From NCBI GenBank assembly GCA_041651035.1, contig JBAZKC010000002.1, positions 120,697-184,696 of the forward strand: DNA of 64,000 nucleotides, read 5' to 3'. The number at the start of each line of letters is the position of its first letter. Position 1 is the first letter of the stretch. The translations under genes and the position numbers were made by a program. This DNA comes from Candidatus Omnitrophota bacterium. Lineage in GTDB: Bacteria > Omnitrophota > Gorgyraeia > Gygaellales > Profunditerraquicolaceae. The notes beneath the pieces are model-generated. The model was given only the letters and a program-made list of their open reading frames with translations. It ran no database searches and was not told where the DNA came from. Shown one piece after another: positions 20,339-56,409 of the stretch.

Positions 20339-20689
20339 ATGTCAAGCATATCCTTTGAAGAAAAAAGGTCGTTTCCCAGATTTCCTATCAAGATCCCATT
20401 AGTATGCCTAGACGAAAATTCTAATAAGGACTTGGAAGCCGCCGAGGTGTTTGATATAAGCGCGCAAGGGATAGGTATAATTACAAATGAAGAGTTATCT
20501 TTGGGTGTACGCCTAAATATAACCTTGAAGATGCCTGATAACGGAGAGCAGGTCTCCCGTAAAGGCAAGGTTATCTGGATAAGAAAGATCCAGCCCGTAA
20601 AATACAGGACAGGCGTCAAATTAGAAGAGCCAAAAATAAAACCGATCCCGCTGGTGCTAAGAATCATAAATTTTCAAAGGAAATATTAA
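20339..20689 (+). CDS. PilZ-domain protein (c-di-GMP binding)
   Basis: RxxxR motif (RSFPR) and DxSxxG motif (DISAQG). Confidence 0.75.
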   Translation: MSSISFEEKRSFPRFPIKIPLVCLDENSNKDLEAAEVFDISAQGIGIITNEELSLGVRLNITLKMPDNGEQVSRKGKVIWIRKIQPVKYRTGVKLEEPKIKPIPLVLRIINFQRKY

Positions 20690-20861: not shown

Positions 20862-21053
20862 ATGATGGAAAGGAAAGCTATGAACGGCGGATTAATGACC
20901 ATAGAAGACCTATCAGATTACCTGAAAGTTACACGCAGGACAATTTATGACTGGGTAAAACACAATAAGATCCCCGCGGTTAAGTTGGTTGGCCAGTGGA
21001 GATTTAAAAAAGATAAGATTGATGCCTGGATTGAGAACAGGTCGCTACATTAA
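20862..21053 (+). CDS. Small HTH_17 (excisionase/MerR-like) DNA-binding protein. The start is possibly the ATG at 20880, which follows SD aaggaaag.
   Basis: MTIEDLSDYLKVTRRTIYDWVKHNKIPAVKLVGQWRFKKDKIDAWI fits the HTH_17 pattern. Confidence 0.65.
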   Translation: MMERKAMNGGLMTIEDLSDYLKVTRRTIYDWVKHNKIPAVKLVGQWRFKKDKIDAWIENRSLH

Positions 21054-21067
21054 AGGGAGAAAAGTAT

Positions 21068-24000
21068 ATGTATTTTAAAAAATTGGAATTAATCGGTTTT
21101 AAATCCTTTTGTGATAAAACGGTTTTACATTTTGAGCCGGGTATTACCGCGGTTGTCGGGCCAAACGGCTGCGGAAAAAGCAATATCTTTGATTCTATAC
21201 GCTGGGTCCTGGGGGAGCAGTCAGCCAAATCCCTGCGCGGTTCAGAAATGCAGGACGTAATTTTTAACGGTACGGATTCAAAAGAAGGAGTAGGATTAGC
21301 TGAAGTCAGCTTGACTTTTGATAATGAAAAAAGGTTTTTTAATATAGATCATCCTGAGGTATCTATAACCAGGAGGCTTTTCCGCTCGGGAGAGAGCGAG
21401 TATCTGTTGAATAAAACCCCCGTGCGCTTAAAGGATATCCTGGACCTGCTTATGGGCACCGGTATCGGGGCGGAAAGTTATTCTATAGTAGCACAGGGTA
21501 AAATTGACATGGTATTAAGCTCCCGGCCTGAAGACAGGCGTTTGGTTTTTGATGAGGCAGCCGGTATTACCAAATACAAATCGCAGAAAAGAGAGACATT
21601 GAGGAGGCTGGAAGAAACCGAGCAGAACCTCTTGCGGGTTAACGACATTATTACGGAAGTAAAACGCCAGATAGGAAGCCTTGAGCGGCAGGCAAATAAG
21701 GCGCGTAAATATAAAGAAGTATTCGAAGAGTTGAAGTCCAGGGAAATAAGTCTATCGGTTTTAGAAAAGCAGGGGCTTTTTAAGCAGAAAGAAGAGATCA
21801 TCAGCCAATTAAAAGAGTTAGAGCTTAATGAGGCCGCTTTATTAAGCGCGATTCGCCAGCAGGAATCCAGTGTGGCGGGGCGCCAGGCAGAACTAAAACA
21901 ACAGGAAGAAAACTCGATAGCCATAAGAAATCAAATATTAAGCCTGGAGAACCTCATAGTAAGGAATAATGAACACGTAAGTTACAATAAAGAGAAGGTT
22001 GTGGAATTAACCCAGAATTTAGAGCATTTAGAAAACCAGATAGGGCAAGTAAGAAACAGGATTATTCTAGACGAAGAGAAACTGGCCCAGGTTAAAGACG
22101 CCTATGGGAACGTAAAGAAAAACATTGAAGCAAAATCGCTAGTGCTCGCGGAAAAAGAGAACCAGATCAATATCCTGGCGTCTTCCATTAAGAATTCGCT
22201 GGAAACCATAGCCAATTCCAAGAAACAGATCATGGATTTCGCTAATAAGATCGCTAACGCTAAGAATGAGATCTCCGATTTTAGCGCCAAAGAACAGATA
22301 TATCTGGCGCGCAAGAAAAGGCTGGAGATAGAAAAGGCAAAGGTTTTTGAAGAGAAATCCGTGACAGAGGAGAGTTTGACCGTTGTTACCCAAGAGGTAG
22401 AGTCTTTAAAGAAGGTAGTAGAAAGTATTAACCTTAAGACCTCCGGCATAAAAAATGATCTGGAGCAAGAAGGGTTAGTCTTAACCAATATCAATGCGGA
22501 TATTCTGGGTGTAGAGAGGCAGAGGCTGGCCCTGGAGTCCCAGAAGGAATTCCTGGAAAAACTAAAGAGTAAATACGAAGATATAGGAGAGGCGCTTAAC
22601 GCGGTTATCTATCTGGATAAGCTGCCTTCTGAGAATATGAGCGGCCTGGTGGTCAAGGTGAGGGACCAGGTCAATTTAAGCGATGAAGATAAGGTTATTT
22701 TAAAACCGGCAAATTTTAAATTGTCAGGAGAAGCCAAGCCCATTGAATTAGATACCCAGAAAATAGATGAAAAGATAAGCCATCTCCAGGATAAACTGGG
22801 AGTCCTAAAGAATGAAAAGGCCGCCAAGGAAGCCCGGGTTGAAGAATTAAATAATGCCATTCTTCTGCTTCAGCAGGATTTACGCAATCAAGAGATCGCG
22901 CTGGCAAATAAAGATACCTCGCGCCTGACTATATTGGAACAGTTTAATAAGATAGAGGAAGAAGAAGATATCATAGTCATGGAACTCCAGGACGTCGGAA
23001 ACGAGATCTCCGTCTTAGAAAAGAATATAGAAGTTTCCCAGTCGCGTTTATCCGAGTTAAATAAAGAGCAGCACCAGATAGAAGGGCTGATCTTACAAGA
23101 AGAAGATAATATATCCGAAAATAGCGGATTAAGGGAAGAGGTGCTGGTGGTCATCACCCAGACAAAGACCGAACTGGAAAATCTTAATAAAAGTATAATT
23201 TCCGACGAGTCTACTCTCAGGATACTCGAAGGTACCTATAAGCAGGACTTAGAGAGCCTGGCGAATATAGAGAAACAGATTTGCGACGGGGGAGCTAAAA
23301 AAGAATCACTCGCGCTGGAGATCGCGGATGCCGAAACAAAGGTCATTCGTTTTAATAAAGAGATAGAAGAGCAGAACAATTTGCTAAAAGAAGCGGAAGC
23401 TAAATACCGCCAGGATACGGAAGGCGCAAGCGGAATGCTTGGTAAAATAGAATCGGACAGGGCAGAACTTGATACCATAAAGAATAAGTTGTATGAATTG
23501 CAGATGCGCGATAAAGATATAGATTATAAGTACAGGAGCATAAAAGACAGGCTGCTGCAGGCTTATAAAATAGATTTGGAGAGCCTGGATAATACCGCTA
23601 CCCCTGAGGATATGAATACGGTTTCGCAGGAAATAGAAAAACTAAAAGAAAAATTAGATTCTTATGGAACGGTAAACCTTGTGGCTATTGAGGAATACGA
23701 CGAATTAAAAAAACGTTATGATTTCCTGGTCCATCAGCAGAACGACCTTTTATCCGCCAAGGAGTCCCTGCACCAGGCGATACTTAAAATAAATCGCACT
23801 ACCAAGCAAATGTTCCTGGAGACCTTTGAGAAAGTGCGCGAGGAGTTCCGTAATTATTTCAGGCTGCTTTTTAACGGCGGGGACGCGCAGGTATTCTTGG
23901 TTGATGAGCAGGATCCTTTGGAGTCGGGGATCGAGATTATCTGCAGGCCTCCGGGTAAGAAATTGCAGAATGTTTTATTGCTTTCCGGTGGAGAAAAATC

Positions 24001-24307
24001 GCTTTCCGCGATAGCGCTTATATTTGCTATTTTTAAGGTGAAGCCGTCGCCATTCTGCATATTAGACGAGATAGACGCGGCCCTTGATGAAGCAAACGTA
24101 ACCAGGTTTTCAGGGATGCTGCAGGAGTTTACTAAAACCTCACAGTTTATAGTGATCACACATAATAAGAAGACAATTATCAACGCGAACGTGATGTATG
24201 GTATTACCATGCAGGAATCAGGCGTGTCTAAGATCGTATCGGTTAAATTTGCCAAGCAGGAAGCCGCGCCCGTGCCTGATCCCGTGCCTGAGCCGGAACC
24301 TGTTTAG
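21068..24307 (+). CDS. smc: Chromosome segregation protein SMC, 1079 aa, apparently lacking a canonical hinge domain
   Basis: Canonical N-terminal head (GPNGCGKSN Walker A, RWVLGEQSAK) and C-terminal head (LSGGEKSLSAIALIFA, ILDEIDAALD). Two ~330-aa coiled-coil arms are joined by a ~55-aa segment. No GRATFLPL or GG-rich hinge motif is seen. Confidence 0.8.
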   Translation: MYFKKLELIGFKSFCDKTVLHFEPGITAVVGPNGCGKSNIFDSIRWVLGEQSAKSLRGSEMQDVIFNGTDSKEGVGLAEVSLTFDNEKRFFNIDHPEVSITRRLFRSGESEYLLNKTPVRLKDILDLLMGTGIGAESYSIVAQGKIDMVLSSRPEDRRLVFDEAAGITKYKSQKRETLRRLEETEQNLLRVNDIITEVKRQIGSLERQANKARKYKEVFEELKSREISLSVLEKQGLFKQKEEIISQLKELELNEAALLSAIRQQESSVAGRQAELKQQEENSIAIRNQILSLENLIVRNNEHVSYNKEKVVELTQNLEHLENQIGQVRNRIILDEEKLAQVKDAYGNVKKNIEAKSLVLAEKENQINILASSIKNSLETIANSKKQIMDFANKIANAKNEISDFSAKEQIYLARKKRLEIEKAKVFEEKSVTEESLTVVTQEVESLKKVVESINLKTSGIKNDLEQEGLVLTNINADILGVERQRLALESQKEFLEKLKSKYEDIGEALNAVIYLDKLPSENMSGLVVKVRDQVNLSDEDKVILKPANFKLSGEAKPIELDTQKIDEKISHLQDKLGVLKNEKAAKEARVEELNNAILLLQQDLRNQEIALANKDTSRLTILEQFNKIEEEEDIIVMELQDVGNEISVLEKNIEVSQSRLSELNKEQHQIEGLILQEEDNISENSGLREEVLVVITQTKTELENLNKSIISDESTLRILEGTYKQDLESLANIEKQICDGGAKKESLALEIADAETKVIRFNKEIEEQNNLLKEAEAKYRQDTEGASGMLGKIESDRAELDTIKNKLYELQMRDKDIDYKYRSIKDRLLQAYKIDLESLDNTATPEDMNTVSQEIEKLKEKLDSYGTVNLVAIEEYDELKKRYDFLVHQQNDLLSAKESLHQAILKINRTTKQMFLETFEKVREEFRNYFRLLFNGGDAQVFLVDEQDPLESGIEIICRPPGKKLQNVLLLSGGEKSLSAIALIFAIFKVKPSPFCILDEIDAALDEANVTRFSGMLQEFTKTSQFIVITHNKKTIINANVMYGITMQESGVSKIVSVKFAKQEAAPVPDPVPEPEPV

Positions 24308-53433: not shown

Positions 53434-54413
53434 ACGTATTGGGGATTGAAACATCTTGCGACGAAACTTCAGTATCGGTAGTAGAGAATGGCAGGAAAGT
53501 CCTTTCTAATAAGGTAAGCTCAAGCCTGGCATTTCATAAGAAATATGGCGGGGTTGTCCCGGAAATAGCTTCCCGCATGCAATTGGAAACGATAACAGAA
53601 GTAGCTGAGGCGGCCGTAAAAGAATCGGGGGTCACTTTAAAAGGTATCGGCATGGTCAGCGTTACCAGCGGCCCTGGCCTTTTAGGTTCTCTATTAACGG
53701 GGATATCATTTGCGAAGTCCGTAAGCCTGTCTTTAGGCGTCCCTTTGCTGGGAGTTAATCATGTTTACAGCCATATATACGCTAATTTTCTAAACAGGCA
53801 GGCTATAATGTTTCCTTTTGTAGCGTTGGTTGTATCAGGGGGGCATACGAGTTTATTCTGTGTAAAGGATTTTGATAAGATGGAAACCCTGGGAGAGGCT
53901 CGGGATGACGCCTGCGGGGAGGCGTTTGATAAAGTGGCTAAGATCTTAGGGCTGGGGTATCCGGGCGGCCCCATTATCGAGAAATTAGCCAAAGAAGGGG
54001 ATAGTAATAAAATAAAATTCCGTTGTTCAGGCACCGAAGGAGAATTGGATTTCAGTTTTAGTGGAATAAAAACCGCGGTATTATATTTAACTAAAGGCAG
54101 GCAATTAAGCCTCGCGGATAAAAAAGACATTGCCGCTTCTTTTCAGAAAGCAGTCGTAGATGCGCTTATTAGAAAGTCTTTATTGGCCTGTAAAATAAAA
54201 AAAGTAAACAAGATAGTTGTCGGCGGAGGGGTGGCGGCGAATAATAAATTAAGAGAAACGCTCCGGGAGGCGGCTAAAGACGCGGGCAGGGAATGTTACT
54301 TTCCTTCCAAAGAATTATGCATGGATAACGCGGCAATGGTAGCGGGGCTCGGCTATCAATTATTCAAGAAAGGTTTCAGGTCGGGTTTGGGCTTGACCGC
54401 CCAGTTAGACTAA
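53430..54413 (+). CDS. tsaD: tRNA N6-adenosine threonylcarbamoyltransferase
   Basis: MNVLGIETSCDETSV N-terminus; Kae1/TsaD family. Confidence 0.9.
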   Translation: MNVLGIETSCDETSVSVVENGRKVLSNKVSSSLAFHKKYGGVVPEIASRMQLETITEVAEAAVKESGVTLKGIGMVSVTSGPGLLGSLLTGISFAKSVSLSLGVPLLGVNHVYSHIYANFLNRQAIMFPFVALVVSGGHTSLFCVKDFDKMETLGEARDDACGEAFDKVAKILGLGYPGGPIIEKLAKEGDSNKIKFRCSGTEGELDFSFSGIKTAVLYLTKGRQLSLADKKDIAASFQKAVVDALIRKSLLACKIKKVNKIVVGGGVAANNKLRETLREAAKDAGRECYFPSKELCMDNAAMVAGLGYQLFKKGFRSGLGLTAQLD

Positions 54414-54448
54414 AATATACTTCGCCTTAAGGAAGATCGGAGGTAAAC

Positions 54449-54892
54449 ATGCTTACGGACAATCAGATAATCTTACGCTTAACGTTATCTGTGCTCTTAA
54501 GCGGGCTTATCGGCATTGAACGCCAATGGCACCGCCGCACCGCGGGACTGCGCACCCATATTCTGGTTTGTCTCGGGTCTTGCCTTATCATGTTGACATC
54601 GTTGTATCTTTTTGATATATATAAAGATCAGGTCCCTCTGGATCCCGCGCGTATCGCTGCCGGAGTCATTACCGGTATCGGCTTTCTGGGAGCAGGCGCG
54701 ATCATCAGGGCAAGAGAAGGCGTAAAAGGGCTTACTACTGCCGCCAGCCTTTGGGTGGTCGCCGGGATTGGTTTAGCCATAGGATGCGGATTCTGGAAAG
54801 CGGGAGTTTTTACTGCCATACTGTCTTTGGTTGTTCTTCTGTTTTTAGGGCACATAGAAACAAGGATGTTCGGCAAAGAAGAAAGGTGGTGA
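54449..54892 (+). CDS. mgtC: MgtC/SapB-family membrane protein
   Basis: RLTLSVLLSGLIGIERQWHRRTAGLRTH signature. Confidence 0.8.
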   Translation: MLTDNQIILRLTLSVLLSGLIGIERQWHRRTAGLRTHILVCLGSCLIMLTSLYLFDIYKDQVPLDPARIAAGVITGIGFLGAGAIIRAREGVKGLTTAASLWVVAGIGLAIGCGFWKAGVFTAILSLVVLLFLGHIETRMFGKEERW

Positions 54893-54896
54893 TACC

Positions 54897-55400
54897 ATGG
54901 CTTTTAAGAAGAAATCGGAAGAGAAGATTCTTGATGTTGATGCTGCGATGCAGGGAAGCCTGGTTTTTAAGGATCCGGTAAGCATACGTATCAACGGCAA
55001 ATTTGAAGGAGACCTGGAAACCAGGGGTAATTTAACCATCAGTGCTACGGCAATAGTAGTGGCCGATATTGTAGGCGACAATATCATTATCGGAGGCAAG
55101 GTCAAGGGAAGAGTGACTGCCAAAGAAAGGCTGACCCTTTTACCTACGGCGGTAGTTGAAGGCGATGTGTATCCGGCGAAATTGAATATTGCCGAAGGCG
55201 CTATACTGGAAGGCAACTGTTTGATGCTCCATGATTTCTTAAACCCTGAAGAACTGGCCAGATACCTGGAGGTAGATTTGAATTCTATTATGGAATGGGC
55301 TAATTCAGGCAAGATGCCGGGGAATAAAGAAGGGAGCAACTGGAAGTTTGAAAGAAAGGCTATTGATTCCTGGGTTGCCTCCGGCAAGATAGAAAAATAG
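54897..55400 (+). CDS. Bactofilin-domain protein fused to a C-terminal HTH_17 DNA-binding domain
   Basis: Bactofilin beta-helix repeats (RINGKFEGDLETRGNLTISATAIVVADIVGDNIIIGGKVKGRVTA...). The C-terminus NPEELARYLEVDLNSIMEWANSGKMPGNKEGSNWKFERKAIDSWV fits HTH_17. Confidence 0.65.
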   Translation: MAFKKKSEEKILDVDAAMQGSLVFKDPVSIRINGKFEGDLETRGNLTISATAIVVADIVGDNIIIGGKVKGRVTAKERLTLLPTAVVEGDVYPAKLNIAEGAILEGNCLMLHDFLNPEELARYLEVDLNSIMEWANSGKMPGNKEGSNWKFERKAIDSWVASGKIEK

Positions 55401-55427
55401 CTAATAGGCGGCTGATAAGATAAACTT

Positions 55428-55739
55428 ATGAGAGAAGAAAAACTTTTAACCGTAAGGGATGTTTCTTTGATTTTAGGCATTTCAGAAAAAGAGGTCTTAG
55501 ACTTAGCTGAAAGCGGAGCTATCCCCGCGTATAAGATCGGCGGGATATATTTAAGGTTCAAAAAGAATCAGGTACAGGAATACAAATCATCAGGCAAAGC
55601 CTCTTTACATAAAGCCGATACCCCTCTAAGATACCCGCTTAAAGACAAGCTAAGCGACTTCTGCTATTTTAATGATTTTTATATTTTAACCAGCCTGATA
55701 ATAATTTTACTGTTAGCCGTCATATTCTGGGGGTACTAA
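55428..55739 (+). CDS. HTH_17 DNA-binding protein with a C-terminal transmembrane helix
   Basis: HTH_17 region LTVRDVSLILGISEKEVLDLAESGAIPAYKIGGIYLRFKKNQVQEY. C-terminal transmembrane helix ILTSLIIILLLAVIFWGY. Confidence 0.6.
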   Translation: MREEKLLTVRDVSLILGISEKEVLDLAESGAIPAYKIGGIYLRFKKNQVQEYKSSGKASLHKADTPLRYPLKDKLSDFCYFNDFYILTSLIIILLLAVIFWGY

Positions 55740-55740
55740 G

Positions 55741-56409
55741 ATTTCTAATAAAGGTTTCTGCGACTTAGGCTTTGCCAAGGTCGATACAGACAGGCAAAAA
55801 CGTAAAGGGCAGGCAGAGGTAATATATTGCCCGGGTAAATCCAGGGAGCATCTTAAGAAAATATCCCTGGAATTACTAAAGAATAAACAGGATTTATTGC
55901 TTACCAGGTTAAGCAAGGATAACTTCGCGTATCTTAAGAAATTGATCCCCCGGTTAAAATATAACGTTTTGGCCCGGATAGGCTATTATTTACAAAGAAA
56001 AAAAGAGCTAAAGAAAGGCCTGGTTATAGTTATGTGCGCGGGGACATCGGATATACCCGTAGCTGAAGAGGCGTTTGTCACGTTAGAAATAATGGGTAAC
56101 CGCGCGATAAAACTTTACGACGTCGGAGTGGCAGGCGTACACCGCCTTATGAAGAATATGGACATGCTGAAAAAAGCGCATGTGGTTATTGTGGCCGCGG
56201 GGATGGAGGGGGCTTTAGCGAGTTTGGTAAGCGGGCTGGTAAGCTGCCCTGTGGTCGCGGTGCCTACGAGCTGCGGTTATGGCGCTAATTTCGGCGGACT
56301 CTCCGCGTTATTGACCATGCTTAACAGCTGCTCTCCGGGAGTAGCGACGGTAAATATCGATAACGGATTCGGCGCGGGGTATCTGGCGAGCCTGATCAAT
56401 AATAAATAA
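55741..56409 (+). CDS. larB: LarB-like protein (PurE/AIR-carboxylase fold, COG1691). The true start is unresolved: no ATG/GTG/TTG precedes the conserved N-terminal motif.
   Basis: In-frame translation from 55741 gives ISNKGFCDLGFAKVDTDRAKRKGQAEVIYCPGKSREHL, a LarB-type N-terminal motif. It is followed by the PurE-like core GLVIVMCAGTSDIPVAEEA...VVIVAAGMEGALASLVSG. The ORF track begins only at a TTG at 55897. An in-frame stop lies at 55714-55716. Confidence 0.6.
   Translation: MSNKGFCDLGFAKVDTDRQKRKGQAEVIYCPGKSREHLKKISLELLKNKQDLLLTRLSKDNFAYLKKLIPRLKYNVLARIGYYLQRKKELKKGLVIVMCAGTSDIPVAEEAFVTLEIMGNRAIKLYDVGVAGVHRLMKNMDMLKKAHVVIVAAGMEGALASLVSGLVSCPVVAVPTSCGYGANFGGLSALLTMLNSCSPGVATVNIDNGFGAGYLASLINNK

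Follow-up and report, generated by a model that had tools for sequence, protein, structure and literature searches.

In a 64,000-nt stretch of the Candidatus Omnitrophota contig JBAZKC010000002.1 (hereafter the window), two adjacent + strand genes encode a bactofilin fused to a C-terminal helix-turn-helix (HTH) domain of the HTH_17 family, and a tail-anchored HTH_17 partner protein. The fusion protein (open reading frame 1, ORF1; 54897..55400) comprises 167 amino acids (aa) and the partner (ORF2; 55428..55739) 103 aa, both beginning with ATG. The two genes form an Omnitrophota-specific, conserved two-gene unit, often extended to three genes by mgtC. Domain architecture, both folds, conservation and gene pairing are established for this module; DNA capture and the docking of one HTH domain onto the other are put forward here as hypotheses. 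An earlier reading of the letters alone (the sequence-only reading) had called both ORFs, and they are present at exactly the coordinates it gave.

That reading had assigned a bactofilin and an HTH_17 domain to ORF1, and Pfam returned both above their cut-offs: Bactofilin (PF04519/DUF583) with 83.9 bits (cut-off 27.9, E 9.7e-24) across profile positions 2-97 of 98, and HTH_17 (PF12728) with 37.2 bits (cut-off 27, E 3.6e-9) across residues 114-163. It had also proposed the Pfam search as a check, with the lack of either the HTH_17 match or the β-helix as grounds for abandoning the idea, and both were found. ORF1 begins with a basic peptide, MAFKKKSEEK (54897..54926), which resembles a bactofilin membrane-targeting sequence (MTS) when judged from homolog N-termini and AlphaFold disorder. 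The bactofilin β-helix domain (residues 11-108; 54927..55220; PF04519, AlphaFold and Foldseek) and an acidic variant of the winged HTH (residues 114-163; 55236..55385; PF12728, AlphaFold and Foldseek) follow. The next gene had been read as encoding a membrane-anchored HTH_17 protein, which is what ORF2 encodes: its winged HTH (residues 6-55; 55443..55592; Pfam, AlphaFold and Foldseek) scores 39.7 bits against PF12728 (cut-off 27), and its hydrophobic C-terminus (Kyte-Doolittle 2.36 across residues 85-103) contains a juxtamembrane motif, D77-F78-x-x-x-N82-D83-F84-Y85, and a transmembrane helix at residues 83-102 (together 55656..55733; alignment, AlphaFold and Kyte-Doolittle). With the NCBIfam excisionase-domain model TIGR01764 (cut-off 28.8), the partner scores above the cut-off (33.2 bits) and the fusion just below it (28.2 bits). 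The two HTH domains had been called paralogs; they share a Pfam family, but BLASTP gives no in-register alignment between them. When the window was scanned in six frames with the HTH-domain profile, only three ORFs matched: the fusion, the partner, and a small protein encoded upstream of smc. A 238-aa antisense ORF (54845..55561, - strand) that overlaps the fusion gene is unsupported, a shadow ORF cast by the conserved gene on the + strand.

The fusion is a bona fide bactofilin with a bona fide HTH_17 fold. Its AlphaFold model, built from a 35-sequence alignment, has a mean predicted local distance difference test score (pLDDT) of 82.9, with residues 1-8 disordered (pLDDT <50), a β-helix at residues 11-105 (pLDDT 84-96), and a C-terminal domain of α-α-β-β-α topology with helices 117-124, 128-137, and 153-161 and a hairpin at 143-152 (pLDDT 73-80). 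In Foldseek searches against the PDB, the N-terminal domain matched BacA (2n3d; TM-score 0.80, root-mean-square deviation (rmsd) 2.3 Å) and the Thermus bactofilin (6ria/6rib), and the C-terminal domain matched the BldC-DNA complex (6ama/6amk; TM-score 0.72-0.78, rmsd ~1.6 Å) and also RdfS, Xis, RacA, and MerR regulators. The partner model consists of HTH helices 9-16, 20-29, and 46-54 with a hairpin at 34-45, a disordered linker (residues 55-70), a juxtamembrane helix (71-81), and the transmembrane helix (83-102), the last two with block-mean pLDDT of ~75-94 (~85-94 for the transmembrane helix). Its HTH domain best matches the RacA-DNA complex (5i44) and BldC (TM-score 0.84-0.88, rmsd 1.1-1.2 Å). 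The close structural relatives of both HTH domains are all DNA-bound proteins, including the chromosome-membrane anchor RacA and the cooperatively oligomerizing BldC. The AlphaFold check that the sequence-only reading had suggested gave a BacA-like β-helix and BldC/RacA/Xis-like winged HTH domains.

The fusion is no one-genome oddity. A survey for bactofilin-HTH fusions, also suggested at the outset, found ORF1 homologs in 1,352 database clusters and the full-length fusion encoded in 68 species-representative genomes; partner homologs form 994 clusters. The top 120 ORF1 clusters are 80-100% identical, nearly all 167 aa long, and possess both Pfam domains in every case. A HMMER search over 1.8 billion representatives added ~25 further 50%-level clusters matching end to end at 36-55% identity, and in all nine of those distant fusion clusters that were examined both domains exceed the Pfam cut-offs. 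A profile made from the distant members only detected ~75 more fusion clusters, after which the scores dropped abruptly from 153 to 97 bits; below the drop there were only single-domain matches, namely bactofilins without an HTH from other phyla and a small number of proteins with HTH_17 alone. All fusion matches that carry an organism name, which are a minority of the matches, are from Omnitrophota/Omnitrophica. Within reach of these searches, the fusion architecture is Omnitrophota-specific yet phylum-wide. Two proteins stand out: a distant fusion (P0162) has a hydrophobic signal- or transmembrane-like N-terminus in place of the first β-helix turns, and a 231-aa protein (P0176) consists of three tandem HTH_17 domains (122 bits).

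Across the 68 species in which the surrounding gene block is syntenic (the window clade), the fusion has a mean identity of 77.4%, equal to that of GatA (78.1%); the corresponding values are 72.5% for MgtC, 67.9% for AcsC, 67.0% for GatB, 64.2% for TsaD, and 59.0% for the partner. Within the fusion, the HTH and the β-helix are equally conserved (mean column identity 0.83 vs 0.84). As judged from these sequence comparisons, the fusion and partner are a strongly selected module conserved at housekeeping level.

The partner lies directly 3' of the fusion in 66 of the 66 resolvable loci of the window clade, with a median gap of 15 nt. Because the entire gatA...acs block is syntenic and fixed in the 68 species, this co-occurrence is weak evidence by itself; however, the partner is also found 3' of the fusion in six further lineages (L071, L075, L078, L162, L163, and L164) with unrelated or only partly shared flanks, and the clade loci and these lineages together argue that the pair is functionally linked. 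Overall, the partner accompanies the fusion in seven of ten distinct genomic contexts. Upstream of the fusion are BatD, TPR, and mgtC genes in L071, SPOR and TPR-PDZ genes in L075, DnaE and response-regulator/ATPase genes in L078, a gene for a giant protein in L162, and gatB, ctp, tsaD, and mgtC in both L163 and L164. Downstream of the partner are genes for a PDZ protein and PolA (L071), small ORFs (L075), a chorismate-binding enzyme gene (L078), ACPS and YdjC genes (L162), a DUF6485 gene (L163), and a tRNA-binding gene (L164). The partners in these six lineages are HTH_17 proteins of 97-114 aa, each with one C-terminal hydrophobic helix. A motif of the type [DE]F.[YR][FY]N[DN]FY precedes that helix in five of the six (absent in L075, degenerate in L078), for example DLFYFNDFY, DFWRFNNFY, DFFYYNDFY, and EFIYFNDFY, and in a 27-sequence alignment of the close clade D77, F78, and N82-Y85 are invariant. 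The third gene of the extended unit, mgtC, encodes a 147-aa MgtC-like membrane protein (54449..54892, + strand; Pfam MgtC PF02308, 143.7 bits, cut-off 31.4), and its stop codon lies 4 nt ahead of the fusion ATG. It is directly 5' of the fusion in four of the ten contexts, i.e., the window clade, L071, L163, and L164.

Polymerization and peripheral membrane binding of the fusion are plausible from homology. In HMMER alignments, fusion residues 11-110 correspond to BacA 41-136 and to residues 18-110 of TtBac, and L104 is the equivalent of BacA F130 and TtBac F105, positions at which substitution with Arg abolishes assembly (F130R, PMC12448750; F105R, PDB 6ria). The L104 column is hydrophobic family-wide, with Leu or Met in the close clade and mostly Phe in distant members. 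The global membrane-targeting consensus of bactofilins is MFSKKKK, with F2, K4, and K7 critical, and weak targeting peptides act via the avidity of the polymer and can be replaced by a membrane-anchored client (PMC12448750). Most of 120 close homologs begin with MAFKKK or a one-substitution variant. In MAFKKK, the Met, Phe, and Lys cluster of the consensus are present plus an extra Ala. In distant fusions, Met is followed by a small or hydrophobic residue and then by clustered Lys/Arg; some (MAKKN...) have no aromatic residue, and the most divergent branch (M[KR]FF..KRKK) comes nearest to the canonical motif. The Caulobacter BacA-PbpC system may be similar in that its N-terminal membrane peptide gains from polymer avidity and the cytoplasmic tail of a bitopic client binds the polymer and reinforces membrane attachment; it differs in that this client synthesizes cell wall and its tail is disordered, the BacA C-terminus is disordered, and there are no HTH domains (PMC12448750). 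Since bactofilin filaments are non-polar (PMC12448750), the HTH domains would emerge as two-fold-related pairs at the tail-to-tail junctions. On this geometry, the bactofilin interface would do what the coiled coil does in MerR dimers.

Taking these data together, we tentatively favor a reading in which a membrane-associated bactofilin scaffold displays an HTH array and, together with its tail-anchored partner, acts as a nucleoid-linked platform. The β-helix domain would polymerize into filaments as in other bactofilins, and the basic N-terminal peptide, repeated along the polymer, would keep the filament at the inner face of the cytoplasmic membrane. The disordered C-terminal tail of ordinary bactofilins would be replaced in every subunit by a folded HTH of the BldC/excisionase type and, because each subunit carries one HTH, the filament would display a regular HTH array. 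The presumably co-transcribed partner would add its own HTH at this membrane surface, joined by a flexible linker of ~20 residues to the single C-terminal transmembrane helix, and both HTH populations could jointly form a membrane-proximal platform that ties the scaffold to the nucleoid. Any DNA affinity would come mostly from the basic wing of the partner, and the acidic fused HTH would serve mainly as a docking or oligomerization surface of the BldC head-to-tail type. The DNA link in this reading is suggested by the DNA-bound structural relatives, the basic partner wing, the kept BldC interface, the HTH_17 relative in an operon with smc, and a divergent fusion located beside actin-like and ParA-type genes. 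BacR with BacE/BacF is a published case of an HTH protein coupled to bactofilins at the membrane (PMC13649987).

The closest comparison for both HTH domains is BldC of Streptomyces (PDB 6ama/6amk; PMC5859096), their best structural match (rmsd 1.1-1.7 Å), with which they share the sequence pattern VD..[ST][VI]..WA..GK. BldC contacts bases through K26 and R30, phosphates through T27, T29, K33, and W31, and the minor groove through H46, R47, and R48; R30A or H46E each abolishes its DNA binding, as does G44E, the GG turn being essential (PMC5859096). We aligned 140 fusion, 123 partner, and 81 smc-linked HTH sequences by HMMER and by profile alignment, and charges were counted from the sequence, not taken from an electrostatic surface calculation. 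The reference BldC (K26, R30, K33) has a net charge of +3 in the recognition helix and +5 in the wing, and Pukovnik Xis +2 and +4. The head-to-tail interface of BldC (F21, V23, W31) is retained in the fusion as L124, V126, and W134, three basic wing or turn residues persist there (K139, K144, K150), and the partner keeps an equivalent of the GG turn. The smc-linked HTH has Arg for K26, Asp or Glu for R30, and Lys at K33, retains R25, T27, and W31, and is basic throughout (helix +2.0, wing +4.0, domain +3.8).

The surfaces of its own HTH domains weigh against the nucleoid-linked platform. BldC is a stand-alone, basic 68-aa regulator, whereas in the fusion its contacts K26, R30, and K33 are replaced by Asn, Glu (124 of 140 sequences), and Asn, T27 by Ser, with W31 kept; H46 and R47 are also unconserved. 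The recognition helix of the fusion contains a mean of 0.2 basic residues, net charges are -0.9 for the helix, +0.3 for the wing, and -2.6 for the domain, and in all 71 of 71 genomes the domain carries a net negative charge, from -1 to -7. The residues of the fused HTH that are invariant across the phylum (L124, P141, F151, W159) are confined to the core, and no residue on the surface of its recognition helix is invariant. The partner is more positive than the fused HTH in 69 of the 71 genomes (domain +1.1, wing +3.3) and keeps the Lys equivalent to K26, with T27 replaced by Glu, R30 by Asp, and K33 by Glu; its recognition helix is acidic (-2.75), with E20, E22, and E28 invariant. Further points on the same side are structural and distributional. 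The fusion model has a predicted TM-score of only 0.61, so the orientation between its two domains is unreliable; ~8 residues separate the last strand from the HTH in the window clade, and the HTH might disturb the C-terminal polymerization interface; and three divergent fusions (L080, L074/L161, and L165) lack an HTH partner, another membrane protein or a two-component system being found 3' of the fusion instead. Those of L080 and L074/L161 are 25-39% identical to the window protein.

A Glu in a recognition helix does not alone rule out base contact. Judged from residue composition, the fused HTH lacks a basic DNA-contact surface, and the partner has an acidic helix but a basic wing. On these grounds the fused HTH is unlikely to bind DNA in the canonical way by itself; it may bind weakly through avidity, bind with help from the partner, or have a purely protein-protein role. 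The smc-linked HTH reaches 40-50 bits with profiles of generic DNA-binding and excisionase families, the fusion and partner 20-28 bits, and only the smc-linked domain of the three looks like a canonical DNA binder. The direct cytoskeleton-to-DNA or membrane-to-DNA tether advanced by the sequence-only reading is thus weakened by the acidic fused HTH (71 of 71 genomes) and the lost BldC contacts, although the basic wing of the partner speaks for it.

The same residues bear on a module without DNA, in which the HTH_17 domains have been exapted for protein-protein contact: the acidic HTH array of the bactofilin would dock onto the HTH or the basic wing of the partner, the partner would be a membrane anchor or client of the filament, with MgtC or other membrane proteins as possible additional clients. 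We regard this as a serious but somewhat doubtful alternative. The uniformly acidic fused HTH and the more positive partner (71 and 69 of 71 genomes) fit it well, as do the loss of the base-contacting BldC residues and the 20-28 bits that fusion and partner reach against generic DNA-binding HTH families, where the smc-linked HTH reaches 40-50. Variation of the recognition-helix surface by lineage would be expected of co-evolving protein partners, yet no clear correlation emerged when fusion HTH charge and partner HTH charge were compared across seven lineages. Protein-binding MerR-like folds do exist, CbpM (3ucs) being among the Foldseek matches; bactofilins bind BacR near its HTH (PMC13649987), and the membrane-anchored client PbpC stabilizes BacA at the membrane (PMC12448750). 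On the other hand, characterized HTH_17, MerR-N, and excisionase domains nearly all bind DNA, the partner retains its basic wing (+3.3) and the K26 equivalent, and the fusion retains equivalents of T27, W31, K36, R41, and R48. Moreover, the fusion already possesses an MTS-like peptide, and a second anchor is not obviously needed.

It is possible, though in our estimate unlikely, that the bactofilin filament and its tail-anchored partner form a single self-assembling chromosome-membrane anchor that holds the nucleoid by many weak, cooperative, BldC-like contacts. If so, the pair would be a minimal covalent equivalent of RacA-DivIVA or BacNOP-PadC-ParB, and it may cooperate with the HTH-smc operon. 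In Bacillus subtilis, RacA-DivIVA couples a MerR-like winged HTH to a scaffold at the membrane (PDB 5i44; PMC6593407), and RacA is the top Foldseek match of the partner and among the matches of the fusion. However, the HTH of RacA is basic and contacts YpG bases through an Arg, and the protein also has a coiled coil and binds DivIVA non-covalently during sporulation; in the Omnitrophota pair Glu or Asp occupies the position of that Arg, a coiled coil is lacking, and a bactofilin or a transmembrane helix serves as the anchor. The BacNOP-PadC-ParB/ParA system of Myxococcus xanthus likewise uses a bactofilin polymer, which organizes chromosome-associated DNA-binding machinery (PMC5703909; bioRxiv 10.1101/2020.06.17.156356). 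Its link to DNA is non-covalent and runs indirectly through an adaptor: PadC, which has a ParB-like domain, recruits ParA and ParB-parS. In the Omnitrophota protein the winged HTH is covalently part of every bactofilin subunit and a ParB-like domain is lacking. In M. xanthus, SMC and the bactofilin scaffold can have overlapping roles (bioRxiv 10.1101/2020.06.17.156356).

An improbable alternative is a regulatory switch, in which the partner, or both HTH proteins, would be a membrane-tethered transcription factor whose access to DNA is set by bactofilin sequestration or by release from the membrane, thereby coupling the state of the envelope to gene expression. The precedent is BacR (YhbD, DUF4004) of B. 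subtilis, an HTH protein encoded in the operon of the bactofilins BacE and BacF, which bind it near its HTH, block its DNA binding, and recruit and retain it at the membrane (PMC13649987). BacR is a soluble, separate polypeptide of ~210 aa belonging to PF13171 that binds DNA and regulates its own operon; in Omnitrophota, which is a different phylum, the bactofilin carries one HTH as a fused domain and a tail-anchored protein carries the other. Neither fusion nor partner belongs to the BacR family, DUF4004 (PF13171) giving no match at E <= 1 in either. The basic wing of the partner and its fold, that of DNA-bound regulators, would suit a switch, and PDZ/Ctp-type protease genes, whose products could in principle process a tail-anchored factor, recur nearby (window clade, L163, and L164; TPR-PDZ in L071 and L075). 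The protease link is positional only, however, and there is no dedicated regulatory region, the fusion starting 4 nt after mgtC inside a long string of housekeeping genes. Acidic recognition helices also speak against a switch, and housekeeping-level conservation of a 167-aa structural protein would be unusual for a niche regulator.

A mobile-element excisionase, a defense component similar to MAD1 of the MADS system, or an assembly or gene-calling artifact joining two genes is effectively refuted: HTH_17 is typical of excisionases, and weak matches to NCBIfam MADS1 (42.8 and 32.5 bits), PADLOC mad1 (~20 bits), and PHROG excisionases were obtained, but all are sub-threshold (MADS1 cut-off 80), no integrase or defense gene lies within ±6 kb, where the neighbors are gatA, gatB, ctp, tsaD, mgtC, larB, and acs, the synteny is fixed in 68 species, and the same 167-aa fusion recurs in >1,000 independent assemblies, with both domains kept in distant fusions. 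Membership of the MAD1 family (NF047737/PDLC04133) was rejected on those scores and on the housekeeping neighbors. The BldC family (NF033787) was likewise rejected, at 16.9 bits against a cut-off of 77, the domain here being fused or tail-anchored and not a stand-alone protein of ~68 aa. A link to magnetosomes, raised by a weak MamR match and by the MamF_MmsF/Volactin context in L074, was also discarded because Mam profiles fall far below their cut-offs: the partner scores 17.8 bits with MamR (NF040990; cut-off 100), the window has no Mam genes, and in L074 the only Mam profile match, MamK, reaches 21 bits (cut-off 400).

The literature searched contains no prior description of a bactofilin-HTH fusion architecture, and public databases hold the fusion under the automatic names "polymer-forming cytoskeletal protein" and "excisionase family DNA binding protein". 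To our knowledge, characterized bactofilins have disordered tails and are linked to DNA-binding machinery only by an adaptor (PadC) or a separate regulator (BacR). A folded HTH on each bactofilin subunit would be the first covalent tie of bactofilins to a domain of DNA-binding type. If the HTH domains do not bind DNA, the module would represent a clear exaptation of an excisionase/MerR-type HTH as a protein-docking module. With proteins of 167 and 103 aa, the system is compact and experimentally tractable even though Omnitrophota are uncultured, and the pair is useful as a phylum marker and as an entry point to the cell biology of ultra-small bacteria.

In the window, the genes 5' of the pair are gatA, gatB, a Ctp-type S41/PDZ protease gene, a polysaccharide deacetylase gene, tsaD, and mgtC, and those 3' encode a LarB-like AIRC protein, FmdE, the large subunit of the corrinoid iron-sulfur protein (CFeSP; CdhD+FeS), RACo, a CooC-like ATPase, the CFeSP small subunit, and a pterin-binding methyltransferase. 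The sequence-only reading had placed the pair between mgtC and the CFeSP operon, apparently in one long transcription unit. Both flanks are as described, and the tight packing is compatible with a single unit: in relatives, the LarB ATG lies within ~10 nt of the partner stop codon, and a consensus scan detected no + strand terminator-like site between 54449 and 55897. A weak promoter-like candidate, TTGACC-17-TATACT (54393..54421, + strand; 10 of 12 consensus matches), lies just upstream of mgtC. Promoter and terminator scans of this kind report consensus matches, which are no evidence of function. LarB, FmdE, and CFeSP genes are 3' of the pair only in the window clade, and elsewhere the pair keeps mgtC or nothing. 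A functional tie to LarB, FmdE, or CFeSP was consequently rejected, and the CFeSP adjacency is clade-specific and incidental.

The 5' end of the LarB-like gene in the window (55717..55899) differs from that of most relatives. A conserved N-terminal stretch of 53 residues (GFCDLGFAKVD.DR..R.G..EVIYCPGK) is encoded in frame 5' of the first canonical start (TTG, 55897), and in 49 of 58 relatives an ATG is positioned exactly 53 codons upstream. In the window the corresponding codon is AAG (55738-55740), which overlaps the partner stop codon and is followed by ATT; the gene may be truncated, may use a non-canonical start, or may contain a sequencing error here.

Other neighbors recur in more distant contexts. 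In L074 (1290-6567) and L161 (1194-6471), the divergent fusion, 25% identical to the window protein, is at the end of a cluster whose products are several hypothetical proteins, an actin-like member of the Volactin family, and a ParA/MinD-type ATPase that carries an AMPK1_CBM domain at its C-terminus; Pfam matches MamF_MmsF there, but on a truncated neighboring ORF and with no support from NCBIfam. Homologous secreted TPR-PDZ proteins are encoded in L071 (6767-7768) and L075 (3975-4946), with 25% identity over their full length (E ~1e-29); the gene adjoins the pair in these two unrelated contexts, downstream in L071 and upstream in L075, and the window has no copy. The window clade, L163, and L164 each have a Ctp-type S41/PDZ protease gene two to three genes upstream.

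The third HTH_17 gene, reported by the sequence-only reading directly upstream of smc at 20862, is present (20862..21053, + strand). It encodes a stand-alone, basic 63-aa protein linked to the pair only by Pfam family. The gene ends 14 nt before smc (21068..24307), and its HTH is 32% identical to each of the fusion and partner HTH domains. With phrog_66 it scores 50 bits, vs 26-28 bits for the fusion and partner. In related metagenome loci (L081-L160), smc is downstream of the HTH gene in 71 of 71, with a modal gap of 14 nt; 61 are directly adjacent, one (L096) has a gap of ~400 nt, and nine have an intein-interrupted smc. The smc-linked HTH is 76-96% identical across metagenomes. HTH and smc thus appear from sequence to be a conserved Omnitrophota operon, and the HTH protein could be a regulator or loader of smc. 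As for the proposal that the three HTH genes make up one system, they do share a domain family, but no functional tie of the smc-linked HTH to the pair was found.

In the nine interrupted loci (L092, L093, L100, L112, L120, L125, L150, L153, and L160), an intein is inserted in the Walker-A P-loop of smc with the layout GPNGCGK/CLS...(~290-560 aa)...IVHN/SNIFD; four were confirmed by translation and the other five were inferred from the same tblastn pattern. The smc of the window is uninterrupted (GPNGCGKSNIFD). A PilZ-domain gene (48.3 bits; 20339..20689) lies upstream of the HTH-smc pair in the window and occupies the same position in 26 of 65 related loci.

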